Source of the DNA: a virus
Virus genome (UHGV): UHGV-0120697
Strand: one strand, 5' to 3'
Length of the DNA stretch: 28,017 bases
The notes under the pieces were generated by a model that was given only the letters and a program-made list of their open reading frames with translations, ran no database searches and had not been told where the DNA came from. Both the position numbers and the translations under genes were made by a program. Positions 1,558 through 9,896 of this stretch are shown one piece after another; within the stretch, counting starts at the first letter, position 1, and every line of letters starts with the position of its first letter.

Positions 1558-2079
1558 ATGCGGGACTTCATTGCCGATAAAGAGTTATCTGACCACCAAC
1601 CACTTCAGGAAAGTGACACACTCAGCGGATCCATTGATGCCGCCAACGACGACGAACACGAAGAAAACAAGAAAAAGCGTTCCTACAAAAAAGGAGCGAC
1701 TTTGCGGCTGGATGGTCCGATCGCCGGGCTTTGCTCTCTGGAAAAAGGCGCGGCATATATTGGGCTAACAAAATCTGCACTGCGCGTAGCCATTCATCGC
1801 GGTCAAATGCCGGGACACAAGACGCGCACAAACCCGGAAGATGAAAACTCAGAGGGTGTATGGTGGTTTAACGCCAAAGAGTGGGGCAAGTTGGCTGATG
1901 AGCTACCAGAGCACGAGCCCCCAGAATGGCACAACTGGAAAAGTTACTGGACGTATGACCGCCAGAAAAGGAAGTTCTCTCCAGCTAATAAAGAAGACTG
2001 CCAGACCATTAACGGTAAGCGAGTTTATACAGGCAGAAGCTCAAAACTGGACCAACTCAGAAACAACAGAGGCAACTAA
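1558..2079 (+). CDS. First early-operon protein with a central HTH-like segment (possible Cox/Apl-type regulator or excisionase, unusually long)
   Basis: AAGAGGA RBS; segment AAYIGLTKSALRVAIHRGQMPG resembles a DNA-binding HTH; occupies the P2 cox position. 173 aa against about 90 aa for Cox/Apl; acidic N-terminal extension. Confidence 0.45.
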   Translation: MRDFIADKELSDHQPLQESDTLSGSIDAANDDEHEENKKKRSYKKGATLRLDGPIAGLCSLEKGAAYIGLTKSALRVAIHRGQMPGHKTRTNPEDENSEGVWWFNAKEWGKLADELPEHEPPEWHNWKSYWTYDRQKRKFSPANKEDCQTINGKRVYTGRSSKLDQLRNNRGN

Positions 2080-2083
2080 TCGT

Positions 2084-2506
2084 ATGAAAACAAACACGTC
2101 AGATTTCACAATAACTATTTCAAAAAATGACCAAGCATTAATTGATAACCTGAAATACCTTGCGGAAAAACATAATAACGGACGAATTGCAATTAATTTA
2201 CGACACATCACAGGAGTAACAATTGTAACCAGTTACTGGCATCTATATCTAATCGCTAAATCAGTACTTGAAAACAAAGATTCTGTTGTCAATGGAAGAG
2301 ATATAGATACTCTTCCTGCACAAATCAAACCGATAGCCTATCAATTGCGTAATCGTTTTAAAAATGAAGGTGGGATTATATTTGACTTTCCCGCAGCTGT
2401 AGCCGTGAGCTTCTCTCGGGAGGATATACTTCACTCATTTCGTTTTGCTCTATCAGGTGACGAGACATTATGGCAGCTAGAAGATGCCGGGAGCAGCCCG
2501 GCATAA
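2084..2506 (+). CDS. Hypothetical protein in an AT-rich island (moron candidate)
   Basis: Track ORF trimmed to the internal ATG at 2084 because 1841-2083 overlaps the preceding gene in another frame. Visibly lower GC than the flanks. No recognisable domain. Confidence 0.45.
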   Translation: MKTNTSDFTITISKNDQALIDNLKYLAEKHNNGRIAINLRHITGVTIVTSYWHLYLIAKSVLENKDSVVNGRDIDTLPAQIKPIAYQLRNRFKNEGGIIFDFPAAVAVSFSREDILHSFRFALSGDETLWQLEDAGSSPA

Positions 2507-2512
2507 ATCAAA

Positions 2513-2704
2513 TTAAAAATCAACCAGTTGTGTGACAGGTGGGTATTTACGCTGAATTTTGTCAGTTACTAACGCCAGTAATATATGAATCTCTGTGTTT
2601 AATGCGTCTTTATCACCCGTCGTTTTTACCCTGGGAGGGTTAATGTTATCCAGAGCAGCACTAAGTTCACTCAACAAATTAACAACTTTTTTATCTTCTG
2701 ACAT
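2513..2704 (-). CDS. Hypothetical small protein (63 aa), convergent with 2084-2506
   Basis: ATG with an AAGAGG RBS on the minus strand; AT-rich putative promoter region 2705-2840 upstream. Confidence 0.4.
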   Translation of the reverse strand: MSEDKKVVNLLSELSAALDNINPPRVKTTGDKDALNTEIHILLALVTDKIQRKYPPVTQLVDF

Positions 2705-2841
2705 GAAAACCTCTTAACAATTTAATTAAACATAAGCCAGGACCTGAACCGGCCAGTCCAAGTCCTAGACACACAAAAAAAATACCACAAATCAATACAA
2801 GGTGACACGAGTACACCTTACCGAAGGTACAGAGTTTTAAT

Positions 2842-3192
2842 ATGAAACTACAGCGCAATTCTTCACAGCAACGTTTCCGCAACGGTGCGGAACGCCATGC
2901 TAACCGTTTCGCTACCAGTGCATCACGTAGCAACTCTCGCTACAGCCTGAGCGAAACACACGCAACACCGGATGGCTACCCAGTAAAACAAATTGGTGAA
3001 CACACTTGGCTGATTGAAAAAGCAGGAATCGTGGTTCACAGATGCCAGCGCAACCCATTTACCGGAAAACGCATTTTTGCACTGAGCAACGGCGACAATC
3101 AGTTCGGGCAGGATTTCACATTGTACGAAGCACTTCGCACAGTTGATCGTCTGCTTCGCGGACAAAGTTTTATTAAACAGGCTGATTTATAA
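2842..3192 (+). CDS. Hypothetical early protein
   Basis: ORF in the early operon orientation; no recognised domain. Confidence 0.5.
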   Translation: MKLQRNSSQQRFRNGAERHANRFATSASRSNSRYSLSETHATPDGYPVKQIGEHTWLIEKAGIVVHRCQRNPFTGKRIFALSNGDNQFGQDFTLYEALRTVDRLLRGQSFIKQADL

Positions 3193-3202
3193 CAGGTGCT
3201 TT

Positions 3203-3490
3203 ATGACCAAAGACCATGCACAAGGTGTATTTATCCGTTTTATTGATTTTCGCGGTGAACTGTTATTACGTGCATCCGCTATTGACGGAGTGACTCCGGC
3301 GGGTAAAAACGGAGCCGACGAAGCCACTTACGTTTATCTGAACGGCACACGACTGCTTGTGGAACTTCCGTACCAGACCGTACGAGAAATCATCAGCGAA
3401 GCTGAAAAGGCACGCCAGGTTAATGGCGATGAACCCTATATCGAAATTATTTGTATGGATTCAGAAGCTGAAATACAGAAAGCAGATTAA
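3203..3490 (+). CDS. Hypothetical early protein
   Basis: Internal ATG at 3203 preceded by an AGGTG RBS (track ORF starts 3143). Confidence 0.5.
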   Translation: MTKDHAQGVFIRFIDFRGELLLRASAIDGVTPAGKNGADEATYVYLNGTRLLVELPYQTVREIISEAEKARQVNGDEPYIEIICMDSEAEIQKAD

Positions 3491-3501
3491 AGGGCGTTGT
3501 G

Positions 3502-3744
3502 ATGGGCAAAGAATATAAAACTCTCATTAACAAAGCACTTGAGCGTTTTTATTTTCGCTTAAGTGCATCAGGCGTTCATGCTGAACGTGCAGCCCGTGAC
3601 TCATTGACCAGGGCAATCCGGAGTCTGTATGACGTGGCTTTTTACGCTGATGATCTGGATGCACTTAACGAACTTTCCGAGCTGATCTGTGCCGCAGAAT
3701 GCGGGGAACATATTGAACCGTATAAGCTGGGGAATATTGCATGA
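3502..3744 (+). CDS. Hypothetical early protein
   Basis: ATG at 3502 after a GTG at 3499; tightly packed with neighbours. Confidence 0.5.
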   Translation: MGKEYKTLINKALERFYFRLSASGVHAERAARDSLTRAIRSLYDVAFYADDLDALNELSELICAAECGEHIEPYKLGNIA

Positions 3745-3854
3745 GTATATTTATCTCATGGCTTGTTCTGATTATTTCAGTGGTCTGCGCAATTGGCATT
3801 GTGCGAATTATTCATTCAGTAAAAAAGATTGAGCGTTTTTTCACTGAAGAATAA
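3741..3854 (+). CDS. 37-aa single-pass membrane micropeptide (MSIFISWLVLIISVVCAIGIVRIIHSVKKIERFFTEE)
   Basis: Not in the ORF track (below its size cut-off). ATG overlaps the upstream stop (ATGA coupling); a hydrophobic stretch of about 20 residues followed by a charged tail. Confidence 0.4.
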   Translation: MSIFISWLVLIISVVCAIGIVRIIHSVKKIERFFTEE

Positions 3855-3944
3855 CAGCACAAATAAAACACACGATTAAATAAGAAAACATGAAAACAAT
3901 CCGCACTCGCGGAGGGCTTTGTACATTCAAATAAGGCGGCAACG

Positions 3945-4262
3945 ATGAAACAAAATAAAGAAGACAAAATTCAATGCGACGCATTAGCTATTCTTGCTCA
4001 TCTCCAGGATTGCAAACTGGAAGAGGCGCTCCCCGTCGCTCTTGAACTAACCAGAACACTTGTTAGTGAAATTGACCCGGAACGCGACATCGGCACGTTT
4101 ACTGTTGCACTGGCGGCAAAGGCCCTGTTAACGGAACTCTCATCAACCCTTGATTCGCTTTTCGCCGAAATAGACGAGTTGCACGACCACATTGAAGAGC
4201 TGGAAATCCAGCTATCCCGCATCCGTCGCCAGAAACAGAACAGTGGGCGCAATGGCAATTAA
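3945..4262 (+). CDS. Hypothetical early protein (acidic, helical)
   Basis: ORF with an AAGGCGG RBS; no recognised domain. Confidence 0.5.
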   Translation: MKQNKEDKIQCDALAILAHLQDCKLEEALPVALELTRTLVSEIDPERDIGTFTVALAAKALLTELSSTLDSLFAEIDELHDHIEELEIQLSRIRRQKQNSGRNGN

Positions 4263-4455
4263 GCACTTTCCTGTCGTTCGTTTTACCTCCAGAGGACGTG
4301 AATACGAAGTCGACGAACGCCTGATTACCACAATCGACAAACACCGTTCAGAAAAGGATGCACACCACATCTACCTCACTGACGGCACTTACTTCTGCGC
4401 CACCAACGTGGTGCGGGTGAACCTTATCCGACAGGTACAGGAGTCATGCAGATGA
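4252..4455 (+). CDS. Hypothetical small protein
   Basis: Internal ATG at 4252 overlapping the upstream gene end by 11 nt (track ORF 4192). Confidence 0.4.
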   Translation: MAIKHFPVVRFTSRGREYEVDERLITTIDKHRSEKDAHHIYLTDGTYFCATNVVRVNLIRQVQESCR

Positions 4456-4697
4456 CCATTCTGGACTATATCGCCGCCAATCCGGGGTGTAGCGGTGGAG
4501 AAATCGCCGCAGCACTGAATACCCCAACCACAGCTATTAATGCGGAGTTACGCCGACTCTGGCGTAGCGGTTCAGTCATAAGAAAAGAGCGCAAAACAGG
4601 TGGTCGCTTCTCTTACCAGGTAAACCCGATGCCGTTCGGGTGCGGCAATCCACTTACCAATATGTTTAACCAGTTACTGAAGGAAGCCAGAGCATGA
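4452..4697 (+). CDS. Small winged-helix-like DNA-binding protein (putative)
   Basis: MTILDYIAANPGCSGGEIAAALN... resembles a wHTH recognition unit. CAGGAG RBS favours the ATG at 4452 over 4446. Confidence 0.4.
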   Translation: MTILDYIAANPGCSGGEIAAALNTPTTAINAELRRLWRSGSVIRKERKTGGRFSYQVNPMPFGCGNPLTNMFNQLLKEARA

Positions 4698-4990
4698 GCA
4701 TCATCAACCACCAGGAACTACGCGAACTGGCGACTGCCGTGCAAAGAATACCCCCCCGTGAATCACTACCATCTCGCGTGAGCTTACAACCGTCAGTGGT
4801 GTTGGCACTGCTGGATGAGTTGGAGCACGCCAGAACCACGGCCCCTGCCATTCGCCTGACACTCCATCATGAAATCGCTGATTTCTGCGCGACGTTGGAG
4901 GCGCCAGGCGAACCGGAAACGCCGGAAGCAATACAGCAAGAGCTGCTGCAACGCATTGACAAGGTTTTCGATTTTTTCCTTAACCAGTAA
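4694..4990 (+). CDS. Hypothetical early protein
   Basis: ATGA-coupled to the upstream gene; no recognised domain. Confidence 0.5.
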   Translation: MSIINHQELRELATAVQRIPPRESLPSRVSLQPSVVLALLDELEHARTTAPAIRLTLHHEIADFCATLEAPGEPETPEAIQQELLQRIDKVFDFFLNQ

Positions 4991-5000
4991 GGGCCGCAAC

Positions 5001-5204
5001 ATGAACAACAAGACATGGTTTCGTGCATATGCATGGGCGCTGGTATGCGTCCTCGTCTCTCTCATTCTGTATGTAGGGGTACTCCCCCGAATGATTTCAT
5101 CAGACAGCTCCTTCCTGGTATTGTTGGGCATTTTCATTGCCATGCTGTACCCGGCAGGCGTTGTTCGCCTTTTCAGTAAGTACATCAAGGAAATTAAACA
5201 ATGA
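5001..5204 (+). CDS. Small membrane protein, two predicted TM helices (67 aa)
   Basis: Internal ATG at 5001 with an AAGGG RBS after the previous stop; two hydrophobic segments; ATGA-coupled to the downstream SPFH gene. Confidence 0.5.
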   Translation: MNNKTWFRAYAWALVCVLVSLILYVGVLPRMISSDSSFLVLLGIFIAMLYPAGVVRLFSKYIKEIKQ

Positions 5205-6031
5205 AGAAATTCAGACTCTTTCAGATTCTCCCGCTTTTTGCCGCCATCCTGCTGGTTGGCTGCGATCGCGTTGAGCCAGGTAATATGGGCATCAAAGTCA
5301 ACAAGCTGGGCGACGACAAAGGCGTTGGCGAAGTGGTTGGCGTTGGTCGCTACTGGACTGGCTGGAATACCGAGGTTTACATCTTCCCGACCTTCAAACA
5401 AATGAAGACCTACGATGAGCCGTTCAGCTTTCAGATGAGTGACGGCACAACCATCGGCTATCACATCGGCGTGGCCTACAAAGTTGATCCATCCAAAGTT
5501 ACCACGGTGTTTCAGACCTACCGCAAAGGCGTGGACGACATTACCGACACTGACCTGCGCCAGAAGATCGCCGATGCACTCAACCGACTGGCCAGCAAAA
5601 TGACCACCGATAAGTTTATCGACGGTGGTAAGTCTGAACTGCTGGATTCAGCACTTAAAGATATTCAGGAAGAGATGACCCCCATCGGTATTCAGGTCAT
5701 GAGCCTCTCTTATGTCGGTAAACCGGAATATCCGCCAACCGTTATCGACAGCATTAACGCCAAAGTCACGGCAAACCAGAAAACCCTGCAACGTGAACAG
5801 GAAGTCAAGCAACGCGAAGCTGAAGCCAACATGCTGCGCGCAGAAGCTGCCGGACAAGCCGATGCCATTCGCACAAAAGCCCAGGCTGAAGCCGACGCCA
5901 TTCGTTTACGCGGCGAAGCTCTGCGCCAGAATCCCGGCGTTATGGAGCTGGAAGCGATTAACAAATGGAACGGCACGCTACCGCAATACATGACCAGTAA
6001 CACCGCTGTTCCGTTTGTTCCGGTGAAGTAA
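5201..6031 (+). CDS. SPFH/band-7 (HflK/C-, prohibitin-like) domain lipoprotein
   Basis: Signal peptide with lipobox LLVGC; SPFH-like core followed by an Ala/Glu/Gln/Arg-rich coiled coil (EAEANMLRAEAAGQADAIRTKAQAEADAIRLRGEA) and a WNGTLP tail typical of band-7 proteins. Confidence 0.7.
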   Translation: MKKFRLFQILPLFAAILLVGCDRVEPGNMGIKVNKLGDDKGVGEVVGVGRYWTGWNTEVYIFPTFKQMKTYDEPFSFQMSDGTTIGYHIGVAYKVDPSKVTTVFQTYRKGVDDITDTDLRQKIADALNRLASKMTTDKFIDGGKSELLDSALKDIQEEMTPIGIQVMSLSYVGKPEYPPTVIDSINAKVTANQKTLQREQEVKQREAEANMLRAEAAGQADAIRTKAQAEADAIRLRGEALRQNPGVMELEAINKWNGTLPQYMTSNTAVPFVPVK

Positions 6032-7073: not shown

Positions 7074-9896
7074 ATGACGGCAGAGTACATCAGGGACTGG
7101 CAACAACCGCGCCACGCAGTAGGACGTGAAGGAACGGAGATCCCCGCACCTGAATCCGCACTTTCCTCCTGGCTGGATGCCTACCGGGCAGAGAACGAAC
7201 GCCGCCAGGAAATGGCTGATGCGGCGTTCTCCGCCACACCGCTGGGCAACCTGATTAATAAAAGCCTGGACGCACAGGAAAAACAGGACAAAACCATCAC
7301 ACTGGCAGGAGACGCCAGAAAACGGGCACGCGGCGCGGTGGATGAAGCCATGGCCTCGCTGCGCCTGCTGCCGTCCTATCTGCGCGATCCGCTTATTCGC
7401 CACCTCTCCTTCCTGCGCAAAAAACAGGAAGCCGATCGCCGGAAAGGCAAAAAGAGCTGGCAGGCGGAACGCTATGCACGCGGAACCCTGCGCAAAATAT
7501 TCGAACGTCTGGATCGCACTGACAGACGCTGGCTGACACCGGGTTATCGCTCCCTTGCCGGACGCGAACGCCTGGACGATTTGCTTTACCTGCCGCAGCT
7601 CAACAAACACCAGATACAGACGCTGGCCACCATGACGGCGGCGATGTTCAGCAGCACCTTCGAAAAACTCTGCGATGGCTTTGGCGCGACTGATGGCGAA
7701 CTGACCATGGATGTAACGCTGAAGGCGTATCAGATGCTGGCCCGCATGGCGTTACACCTGCACGCCATGCCTCCACATTATGACGCACTGACAACAGACA
7801 AAGACCGGAGGAACGAACCGGACACGGAGCTGCTGCCGGGCGCAATCCTCCGCCTGACCTGTGCGGAATGGTGGAAACGCAAACTGTGGCTGTTACGTTG
7901 CGAGTGGAGAGAAGAACAACTCCGCGCCGCCTGTCTGGTTTCCAGAAAAACATCGCCCTATCTGAGCCAGGACGCGTTAAGCGAGTTTCGCGCACAGCGC
8001 GAGAAAACACGCGATTTCCTGAAAAGTTTCATGCTGGAAAATGAAGACGGGTTCACGATTGATCTCGAGACGGTGTATTACGCGGGAGTAAGTAACCCGG
8101 TTCACCGTAAGGCAGAAATGATGGCCACCATGAAGGGACTGGAACTTCTGGCCGAAGCCCGTAGCGACAGAGCGGTGTTTCTGACCGTCACCTGCCCGTC
8201 AAAATACCACGCAACAACGGAGAACGGTCATCCGAACCCCAAATGGAACGGGGCCACCATGCGCGACTCCAGCGATTACCTGGTTAACACGTTTTTTGCG
8301 GCAGTCCGCAAAAAACTGAACCGCGACGGCCTGCGCTGGTATGGCATCCGCACGGTGGAGCCTCACCATGACGGCACCGTGCACTGGCATATGATGGTCT
8401 TTGCTCATCCGGAAGAAATCGACAGCATCGTGGCCATCACCCGCGATATTGCCATTCAGGAAGATCGTCACGAACTGGGCGATGATATTACTCCGCGCTT
8501 TAAGGCGGAGTATGTCGACGGCTCAAAAGGCACACCAACCAGCTATATCGCGACCTACATCGGAAAAAACCTGGACAGCCGCGCCGTAGATGGCATCGAC
8601 CCGAAAACGGGCAAGCCACGCGTTGACCACGAAACCGGAAAATCAATGGCCGAGAGCGTGGAGCGCGCCATTGGCTGGGCGCGTCTTCATCGGGTCCGCC
8701 AGTTCCAGTTCTTTGGCATCCCCTCCCGTCAGGTATGGCGTGAACTCCGCCGCCTTGCCAGCCAGATGGCACGCAACCCGGAAGGCCCGCAACGGCTGAA
8801 GGATGATGCAATGGATGCGGTACTCGCTGCCGCTGATGCCGGGTGTTTTGCCTCCTACATTGAAAAACAGGGTGGCGTGCTTGTTCCACGCAAGGACTAC
8901 CTGATTCGCACCGCCTACGACCTCGCAGATGAGCTGAACGATTACGGCGAACAGAGCGTACAGATTTACGGGATCTGGTCACCACTCATCGGGGAATCCT
9001 CCCGTGTGTGCACGCATCCGGATAACTGGAAGTTGGTAAGACGTAAACCAGAACCAGAAGACAACGCCCGCGAAAATGGTTTTGACCTTCAGGGCGGCCA
9101 TGCCGCCCCTTGGACTCGTGGCAATAACTGTCCCCGTGTACAGGAAACGGACAACAACGGGACAGAACAGCCGGAAGAACGGCCAGCACCGTGGCCGCAG
9201 CTTCCTGACGGCGTTGACGTGAACGAATGGATGCGCTCACTGAAACGGCACGAACGCCGGGCGCTGATGCGTTCGCTTCGTGACAAACAGGCAAAAAACA
9301 GCAGTGATGAAATGCAGAGCTGGACACAGAGCCGCAAACAGCAGCGGCCTTTGCCTGATAACCACGAATTACTCGCTAAAGAATGGCGGGAATCTGCCGA
9401 ATCTCTCGGCCTGCATATCGGTGAACAGCAGATGCAGCACCTGTTACGGGGCGGCAGTCTGTACGTTGACGGCAGCATCATTGCACCGCAGGGATTTGAA
9501 ATTGTACGCAAACCGGATACCCGACCGGACAGCCGGATCACGCAGCTCTGGCAGCGCCTGAGCCGTAACCACGGCGTAAGCAGTACGGAGATCCGCCATA
9601 ACCCGGTCGCCAGCTATCTGGAACAGCTGAGGGCATCAGACCCCGAAGCCGCCGCACGCCTGGCATCCACACTTCAGCAAGACCAGAACACCATGAAAAC
9701 ACCCGTTACCGTGCTTTCTGACATGCTGCGCGCCATCCGCGACGCAGAGCACGCACAGAGAATCAGTGAAACCACTGAACGCGCCCGCCGCAAAGCAGAC
9801 CTGCTGCGGGGTGGCCTGACCAGTGGAAACAAAAAACAGACAGAAACGGGATTCACAAATCCCGTAAATGAGCAAAAAACGCGCCGCGATATATGA
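7074..9896 (+). CDS. A: Rolling-circle replication initiator, gpA family (HUH endonuclease)
   Basis: HUH motif (TVHWHMMVFAH) and paired active-site tyrosines (TSYIATYIGKN); position after the early operon as in P2. 940 aa, longer than P2 gpA (about 760 aa), with a C-terminal extension. Confidence 0.9.
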   Translation: MTAEYIRDWQQPRHAVGREGTEIPAPESALSSWLDAYRAENERRQEMADAAFSATPLGNLINKSLDAQEKQDKTITLAGDARKRARGAVDEAMASLRLLPSYLRDPLIRHLSFLRKKQEADRRKGKKSWQAERYARGTLRKIFERLDRTDRRWLTPGYRSLAGRERLDDLLYLPQLNKHQIQTLATMTAAMFSSTFEKLCDGFGATDGELTMDVTLKAYQMLARMALHLHAMPPHYDALTTDKDRRNEPDTELLPGAILRLTCAEWWKRKLWLLRCEWREEQLRAACLVSRKTSPYLSQDALSEFRAQREKTRDFLKSFMLENEDGFTIDLETVYYAGVSNPVHRKAEMMATMKGLELLAEARSDRAVFLTVTCPSKYHATTENGHPNPKWNGATMRDSSDYLVNTFFAAVRKKLNRDGLRWYGIRTVEPHHDGTVHWHMMVFAHPEEIDSIVAITRDIAIQEDRHELGDDITPRFKAEYVDGSKGTPTSYIATYIGKNLDSRAVDGIDPKTGKPRVDHETGKSMAESVERAIGWARLHRVRQFQFFGIPSRQVWRELRRLASQMARNPEGPQRLKDDAMDAVLAAADAGCFASYIEKQGGVLVPRKDYLIRTAYDLADELNDYGEQSVQIYGIWSPLIGESSRVCTHPDNWKLVRRKPEPEDNARENGFDLQGGHAAPWTRGNNCPRVQETDNNGTEQPEERPAPWPQLPDGVDVNEWMRSLKRHERRALMRSLRDKQAKNSSDEMQSWTQSRKQQRPLPDNHELLAKEWRESAESLGLHIGEQQMQHLLRGGSLYVDGSIIAPQGFEIVRKPDTRPDSRITQLWQRLSRNHGVSSTEIRHNPVASYLEQLRASDPEAAARLASTLQQDQNTMKTPVTVLSDMLRAIRDAEHAQRISETTERARRKADLLRGGLTSGNKKQTETGFTNPVNEQKTRRDI
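9846..9865. promoter_or_regulatory. 20-bp palindrome ACGGGATT-CACA-AATCCCGT (copy 1, inside the 3' end of A)
   Basis: Perfect 8-bp inverted arms; an identical-arm copy lies 73 bp downstream. Confidence 0.5.

Follow-up and report, generated by a model that had tools for sequence, protein, structure and literature searches.

The window analyzed here is the whole of UHGV virus genome UHGV-0120697 (28,017 nucleotides), a P2-like prophage of the P88 group (Xuanwuvirus, Peduoviridae) with its integration site next to dmsA. Directly after cox, within the early operon that runs from cox to gpA, lies an AT-rich cassette of two genes that meet tail to tail, orf140 on the plus strand and orf63 on the minus strand. 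The cassette is mobile and occupies a variable slot in P2-like prophages of Escherichia coli and Salmonella. The conservation of both genes in divergent prophages indicates that they are real protein-coding genes under purifying selection and that they form a co-inherited pair rather than chance neighbors. orf140/orf63 is a genuine, previously uncharacterized accessory pair in a known type of locus.

Near-identical prophages are found in E. coli UTI89, NU14, and ST131 strains including EC958, where the prophage is named Phi1. The deposited phages vB_EcoM-569R5 and 705R2 also match the window. The cassette is present in 270 of 5426 complete E. coli genomes (∼5%), always in single copy and always chromosomal, and a cox of the window type is found in 311 of the same genomes. 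It occurs in the pandemic ST131 clone (EC958 Phi1) and in the uropathogenic E. coli (UPEC) model UTI89, with both genes annotated as hypothetical.

A variable slot downstream of cox

A reading made earlier from the letters alone (the sequence-only reading) had described a convergent pair of 140 and 63 codons with 6 bp between the stops, placed inside the early operon and lower in G+C than its flanks. The coordinates and open reading frames (ORFs) agree with that description, with 2507 to 2512 separating the stops, cox to the left, and a DUF4761 gene to the right (Table 1). The G+C content of positions 2084 to 2840 is 0.379, compared to a window mean of 0.531 (standard deviation of 0.045 among 757-bp segments). 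A value this low is reached by only 0.15% of such segments, and the lowest of all, 1983 to 2739, overlaps the island. G+C content at third codon positions (GC3) is 0.29 in orf140 and 0.31 in orf63 versus 0.53 in cox and 0.44 in the DUF4761 gene, which likewise marks the composition as deviant.

The content of the slot differs between otherwise near-identical prophages. It is empty in P88, where the spacer between cox and the DUF4761 gene is 37 bp, while P88_4B11 carries three other small ORFs at this junction. EC361 and APEC E12053 share int, C, and cox with the window, but the cargo of their slot is a single 68-amino-acid (aa) transmembrane (TM) protein, and in EC361 the TAA of cox runs straight into ACACACAAAAA, which is window 2769 to 2779. 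In OkiPb01677, the slot holds genes for 131 aa (+), 172 aa (+), and 107 aa (−). Strain PRO_A has precisely lost the equivalent of window 2076 to 2763 (locus L007, 1983 to 2540). The cox stop codon is gone as a result, and Cox is extended to 185 aa by a new tail at its C terminus. On the right, similarity to P88-type backbones sets in again at ∼2825 to 2835. Because close relatives of the window prophage lack the orf140/orf63 cassette, it lies outside the core switch.

The sequence-only reading had raised the possibility of a horizontally acquired moron, and the variable occupancy of the slot and the deviant composition bear it out. Two properties by which morons are recognized, presence or absence among homologous phages and deviant composition, are thus both found here. 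The third, a promoter and terminator of its own, is divided between the genes: orf63 has a predicted conserved extended −10 element and a post-stop hairpin, while orf140 has neither and rides on the early operon.

Table 1. Positions of the cassette, its predicted signals, the surrounding early-region genes, and a second type of convergent pair in related loci
Feature	Position	Strand	Remarks
Core inserted segment	2080-2768		Edges CTAA (2076-2079) and CTAG (2765-2768), from alignments with EC361 and PRO_A
orf140	2084-2506	+	140 aa, pI 6.4, soluble; ATG at 2084, TAA at 2504-2506
orf63	2513-2704	−	63 aa, pI 5.6, hydrophilic, without TM segment; ATG at 2704, stop at 2513-2515
Stem-loop, predicted orf63 3' end/terminator	2484-2504	−	GC-rich, ATGCCGGG-AGCAG-CCCGGCAT; ∼10 nt past orf63 stop, within last orf140 codons
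Shine-Dalgarno sequence of orf63	2710-2715	−	AAGAGG, 5 nt ahead of ATG; read from sequence
14-bp stem-loop, predicted 5' end of orf63 mRNA	2737-2768	−	At edge of inserted segment; folded
T8 homopolymer	2775-2782	−	Between −10 element and 5' hairpin
Predicted extended −10 element of orf63	2779-2789	−	TGTGGTATTTT (TGTG-G-TATTTT)
Weak −35 element	2803-2808	−	GTGTCA
int	50-1057	−	
C-type repressor	1112-1507	−	Helix-turn-helix
cox	1558-2079	+	173 aa; PF10743 Phage_Cox and phrog_23196; RefSeq "Cox family DNA-binding protein"; first gene of early operon; left anchor of variable site
DUF4761 gene	2842-3192	+	Right anchor of variable site
940-aa ORF	7074-9896		Counterpart in relatives annotated replication endonuclease; early operon extends up to this ORF
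Second convergent pair, L010	4766-5545/5493-5804	+/−	
Second convergent pair, L027	4001-4678/4626-4937	+/−	
Second convergent pair, L006	3448-3966/3944-4267	+/−	

Conservation of the two genes and of their pairing

Both proteins are labeled hypothetical in RefSeq (orf63 is WP_001287827.1, EC958_1050 in EC958). When 5.8 billion proteins were searched with a word index, only near-identical copies from E. coli came back, and tblastn against 50,697 phage records returned only three near-identical phages. Exhaustive phmmer searching of 1.84 billion representatives found remote orf140 relatives at 30 to 34% identity. A profile search widened this family, which is small and restricted to E. coli and Salmonella enterica. 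One phmmer match to orf140, the 1073-aa repeat protein P0015, was rejected as spurious.

Among the relatives, locus L010, a Salmonella P2-like prophage, carries a 138-aa orf140 homolog 3' of cox, whose stop codon overlaps that of a convergent 62-aa gene in the sequence CTAG. The product of the latter is clearly homologous to orf63 (MNEDEKIINLL...ALNNINPPR...EKYP). Counting the window, the layout is kept in six divergent versions, found in E. coli, Salmonella, and IMG/VR prophages, in which a plus-strand gene of ∼131 to 147 aa converges on a minus-strand gene of ∼60 to 63 aa (140/63 in the window, 138/62 in L010, 146/62 in L025, 131/60 in L026, 139/60 in L028 and L029, and 147/62 in L027). Every pair lies 3' of a gene in the cox/apl position, and the stops either overlap by 4 nt or are 4 to 6 bp apart. 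Identity to the window proteins is 21 to 39% for the large protein and 25 to 40% for the small one, which has 10 invariant residues across the six versions and a pI of 4.6 to 5.6.

Near-identical E. coli variants differ by only three to four substitutions per gene, too few to judge selection, and divergent loci were used instead. In two unsaturated comparisons of such loci, dN/dS was 0.14 to 0.15 for the small gene and 0.23 to 0.32 for the large gene. That the minus-strand ORF is a protein gene under purifying selection could not be seen in the sequence-only reading, and conservation also rules out chance ORFs. The tail-to-tail layout itself has been kept far beyond what drift would leave by accident in a recombination-prone region. 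Since the two genes stay together in distant E. coli and Salmonella relatives, they probably work as a pair.

The pairing is asymmetric. Genes of the orf140 family lack the small partner in L012, in E. coli loci of the L006 type, and in the fusions P0016 and P0021. Scans of genome, viral, and metagenome contig collections found no small gene without an orf140-family neighbor. The same scans for relatives of the small gene yielded L025 as the sole addition, and pairs of the L025 type were not found in the complete E. coli genomes.

The sequence-only reading had recognized no domain in either protein, and Pfam, PHROGs, PADLOC, and NCBIfam likewise gave no significant match for orf140 or orf63. 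Three of the six small proteins have a weak full-length match to phrog_35031 (E = 0.1), a family whose function is not known. A profile search of the PDB gave no match. The AlphaFold2 (AF2) model of orf140 has a predicted local distance difference test (pLDDT) score of 36 from the single sequence; with a 16-sequence family multiple-sequence alignment (MSA), the pLDDT is 69 and the predicted template modeling (pTM) score is 0.65, with an alpha/beta layout. Foldseek comparison of the model to the PDB and BFVD gave no fold match (E of at least 1). Both proteins are hydrophilic, with a grand average of hydropathy (GRAVY) of about −0.2, and are mildly acidic and soluble. A literature search by protein accession found no mention of them. 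On these searches, orf140 and orf63 belong to two small families without known relatives, and orf140 is the founding member of its family.

The surroundings of the pair contain several signs of rearrangement. In L010, a near-identical block of ribosome-binding site and start, TTAACGAGGTACAAAATGAAAnTCACCAnnGAAGAT, precedes two successive plus-strand genes (3985 to 4020 and 4750 to 4790) and is likely a recombination joint for cassette shuffling. In P0016 and P0021 (225 and 234 aa), an orf140-like N terminus is fused to the C terminus of a 259-aa neighbor. L027 carries an intact orf140/orf63-type pair (3245 to 3881), followed directly by an orf140-like fusion gene with another kind of minus-strand partner (4001 to 4937), which indicates tandem accretion of cassettes at the slot.

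Predicted transcription signals

orf140 starts 4 nt past the cox stop, with neither upstream space nor a promoter of its own, and is therefore expected to be read with the early operon. The minus-strand gene, for which the sequence-only reading had claimed its own upstream region, does have a predicted extended −10 element, and the motif TGTGnTAynTT is found upstream of all six small genes. It matches once in the 28-kb window against 0.39 matches expected on both strands, and by our own arithmetic the chance of meeting it in the 137-nt spacer on the right strand is ∼1e−3. The predicted transcription start site (TSS) is at ∼2772.

The six loci share an order of elements: the motif (TGn plus TAynTT), a strong stem-loop 0 to 10 nt further on, and then a leader of ∼25 to 30 nt with a Shine-Dalgarno sequence. 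Hairpins equivalent to the 5' stem-loop of the window were folded in L010 and L025 (z = −5.4 in L025) and read from the sequence in L026, L027, and L028. A stem-loop at the very 5' end of an mRNA is a known stabilizing arrangement. The T/A tract between the −10 element and this hairpin varies by strain, with eight residues in the window, seven in C311, and six in UTI89 and ETEC4077, and its length might tune the output of the orf63 promoter. The homopolymer between EC958_1049 and EC958_1050 is listed as a sequencing discrepancy in EC958 (PMC4134206).

A post-stop hairpin is present in all six loci and is followed by a canonical U-tract in L026, L028, and L027. The C termini of the orf140 family that encode it are not conserved in amino acids. 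Because the hairpin is kept while the encoded residues vary, the constraint there appears to be structural. The position of the hairpin ∼10 nt past the orf63 stop also means that the predicted orf63 transcript overlaps just the last ∼20 to 25 nt of orf140. Taken together, orf63 looks like a self-contained unit of ∼290 nt transcribed against the early operon. No operator-like words of at least 7 nt are common to the Pe/Pc region and the orf63 promoter, so nothing suggests control of orf63 by C or Cox.

Possible roles of the pair

Transposon-directed insertion-site sequencing (TraDIS) data for EC958 bear on orf63. EC958_1050 has 19 distinct insertion sites in 174 bp (index of 0.11) and was scored as nonessential (PMC3789825, Table S1). 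We identified EC958_1050 as orf63 by its 1662-nt distance from the start of int, and the mapping is confirmed by position 985718, which lies between EC958_1049 and EC958_1050 (PMC4134206). As orf63 tolerates insertions, it is not an antidote required by the lysogen.

We tentatively favor, at somewhat short of an even chance, the explanation that this mobile accessory cassette has genes expressed in opposite phases and products that are mutually antagonistic. From the anatomy of the locus, orf140 would be produced only on infection or induction, with the firing of the early promoter Pe, and orf63 would be made from the repressed prophage as a short, stable, monocistronic mRNA of ∼290 nt. In lytic growth, head-on polymerases driven from Pe would shut orf63 down. 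The two proteins would be cognate antagonists, with the small acidic protein acting as a lysogeny-phase effector, for example, a superinfection-exclusion or host-modifying factor that binds a target, and orf140 acting as an early-lytic counter-factor that neutralizes it so that the prophage's own lytic cycle is not hindered. The logic would be that of defense with cognate self-immunity. This assignment of roles is weakly favored because orf140 persists without its partner and not the reverse, because conservation is higher in the small protein, and because orf63 is dispensable in the lysogen. Beyond this, the pair may represent a new kind of two-protein prophage system, in which a small effector is confined to the lysogen, its antidote is confined to early lytic growth, and head-on transcription acts as the switch between convergent, stop-overlapping units, although we regard this broader claim as doubtful.

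Several observations weigh against the antagonist explanation. The promoter, TSS, and terminator are sequence predictions; a generic sigma-70 scan did not call the orf63 promoter, and the post-stop hairpin of the window lacks a good U-tract. A soluble, acidic 63-aa protein is small for a defense effector and has no PADLOC or PDB match. Linkage alone can co-inherit two adjacent genes, the observation that orf140 occurs alone and orf63 does not is based on a handful of locus types, and there are just six divergent versions, all from Enterobacteriaceae. The deletion endpoints are also awkward for a self-contained cassette: the segment missing from EC361 and PRO_A ends at 2763 to 2768, where the 5' hairpin has its outer foot, and does not include the predicted promoter at 2779 to 2789. 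Either the promoter is part of the retained flank, or deletions are recurrent at the foot of the hairpin.

The roles could also be reversed. orf140 would then be an early-lytic effector (host takeover, Kil-like toxic, or antidefense) and orf63 a lysogeny-phase inhibitor that buffers leaky Pe activity; convergent transcription would silence orf63 once Pe fires and so release orf140. We consider this possible but less probable, although as a choice of polarity it is nearly as good. In size and charge, the products are reminiscent of a toxin (∼140 aa, alpha/beta) with a small acidic antitoxin (pI of 4.6 to 5.6), orf140 is second in the early operon, the usual place of host-takeover and antidefense genes, and tight repression of Pe would reconcile this polarity with the dispensability of orf63 in TraDIS. 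However, orf140 homologs persist without the small gene in L012 and L006, and no orphan small gene was found even though an antidote, harmless by itself, would be expected to turn up alone often. Antidotes usually evolve faster, whereas here the small protein is better conserved than its partner, and orf140 matches no toxin or antidefense family or fold.

It is unlikely that the cassette acts mainly at the RNA level, with transcription from the orf63 promoter braking Pe read-through into the replication genes by polymerase collision, an antisense duplex, or both, and with the protein secondary. There is no room for a terminator between the genes, so the early transcript must cross all of orf63 in antisense, and precedents exist in lambda OOP and in STnc6030, an exclusion-mediating antisense RNA of BTP1 (PMC7067206). 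Against a brake acting purely through RNA are the protein-level constraint on the small ORF (dN/dS and invariant residues, above) and the dispensability of the cassette, which close relatives do without. In addition, Rfam covariance models run over 1900 to 3000 on both strands gave nothing at E ≤ 1, and the orf63 transcript appears to end ∼10 to 30 nt past its stop codon. The regulatory antisense arrangement proposed in the sequence-only reading therefore survives only as a possible extra layer: orf63 is, by its conservation, a selected protein gene, and the predicted overlap of its transcript with orf140 is short.

That two functionally unrelated accessory genes merely sit side by side in one small cassette is similarly improbable. 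Cassette shuffling is evident from the fusions and repeated start blocks, and orf140 homologs also occur beside other neighbors. Yet the geometry, together with a terminator embedded in the codons of the partner, is kept in six versions at 21 to 40% identity, a degree of preservation that linkage in a recombination hotspot would not be expected to give. A classical toxin-antitoxin (TA) addiction module, whether type II or, like txpA/RatA, type I with an antisense RNA overlapping at the 3' end, was considered as well, since this is a module of two small-protein genes on a mobile element with the convergent 3' overlap of Bacillus prophage type I systems. It is highly improbable, and in its classical form we took it to be ruled out by the convergent orientation (the genes are not cotranscribed), by the dispensability of orf63, which takes transposon insertions at normal density in EC958, and by the lack of a match to a TA family in Pfam or PADLOC. 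Neither protein is hydrophobic or membrane targeted, the "antisense" partner encodes a conserved protein (dN/dS of 0.14), and similarities to PDB entries are nonsignificant.

Relation to known systems

In P2-like phages, the main hotspot described for cargo genes is gpA-gpQ (Rousset et al. 2022, PMC9122126). A 2026 survey in NAR places 8% of P2 defense systems between integrase and primase (PMC13586616), an interval that contains the cox-DUF4761 slot. Like the P2 morons old, tin, and Z/fun, the cassette is <1 kb, AT-rich, present or absent between conserved phage genes, and has one gene with its own predicted promoter and terminator. Unlike them, it lies outside the gpA-gpQ (cos-proximal) hotspot, upstream of gpA in the minor integrase-to-primase interval; it matches no known defense family; and it consists of two convergent genes, of which orf140 has no promoter and depends on the early lytic operon. 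P88-like phages thus have, just downstream of cox, a cargo slot distinct from the well-studied hotspot.

The proposed logic resembles that of BstA/aba (Owen et al. 2021, PMC8585504), in which prophage defense is coupled to cognate self-immunity: the prophage expresses a factor, and a linked element allows its own lytic cycle to escape that factor. There, the factor is one large protein, BstA, and the element, aba, is DNA within the bstA gene, whereas here the candidates are two small proteins with roles proposed from sequence. Lambda OOP and BTP1 STnc6030 (PMC7067206) are similar in being short lysogen transcripts, antisense to an early or lytic transcript, with their own promoter and terminator (predicted for orf63). 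Those RNAs are noncoding, while that of orf63 codes for a conserved protein and would overlap no gene but an accessory one. The type I systems txpA/RatA and bsrG/SR4 of Bacillus subtilis prophages also have convergent genes with overlapping 3' ends, but in those systems a small hydrophobic peptide is the toxin and an RNA the antitoxin, whereas the cassette encodes two soluble proteins and its small gene is dispensable. Transcriptional interference at P2/186 Pe/Pc and pR/pL likewise involves head-on units whose relative strength is set by the lysis/lysogeny state. Those promoters are core regulators and lie face to face at the 5' ends of the immunity region, in contrast to orf140 and orf63, which meet at their 3' ends and are accessory.

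The conserved pairing makes the cassette a well-defined and cheap experimental target: it spans 690 bp, encodes two small proteins, and resides in strains for which genetic methods and TraDIS libraries already exist. The pair is a candidate source of new prophage functions in exclusion, self-immunity, or host modification. Should the two genes indeed be wired to opposite phases, they would illustrate how convergent transcription allows a phage to couple an accessory function to the lysis/lysogeny state.

Other features of the early region

The early regions of L010, L027, and L006 also contain a convergent pair of a second, unrelated type (Table 1). It consists of a plus-strand gene of 172 to 259 aa and a homologous minus-strand gene of 103 to 107 aa, with a 3' overlap of ∼20 to 50 nt. 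This suggests that convergent pairs are a recurring design of P2-like early operons and, if true, would make the design general for them.

The second-lowest stretch in G+C content, window 3144 to 3900 (0.423), includes a 37-aa predicted membrane ORF at 3741 to 3854. The region after this ORF differs between the window and UTI89, and the stretch may be another small variable slot of the early operon. Further along the operon, at 5201 to 6031, is a gene for a 276-aa SPFH-domain lipoprotein, an unusual cargo for such an operon, which is annotated "SPFH domain-containing protein" in UTI89 and "lipoprotein/serine protease" in P88. In APEC E12053, an element of the IS3 family (L005, 1241 to 2454) lies between the C repressor gene and cox, the 5' end of which is truncated, and this prophage is probably locked in.

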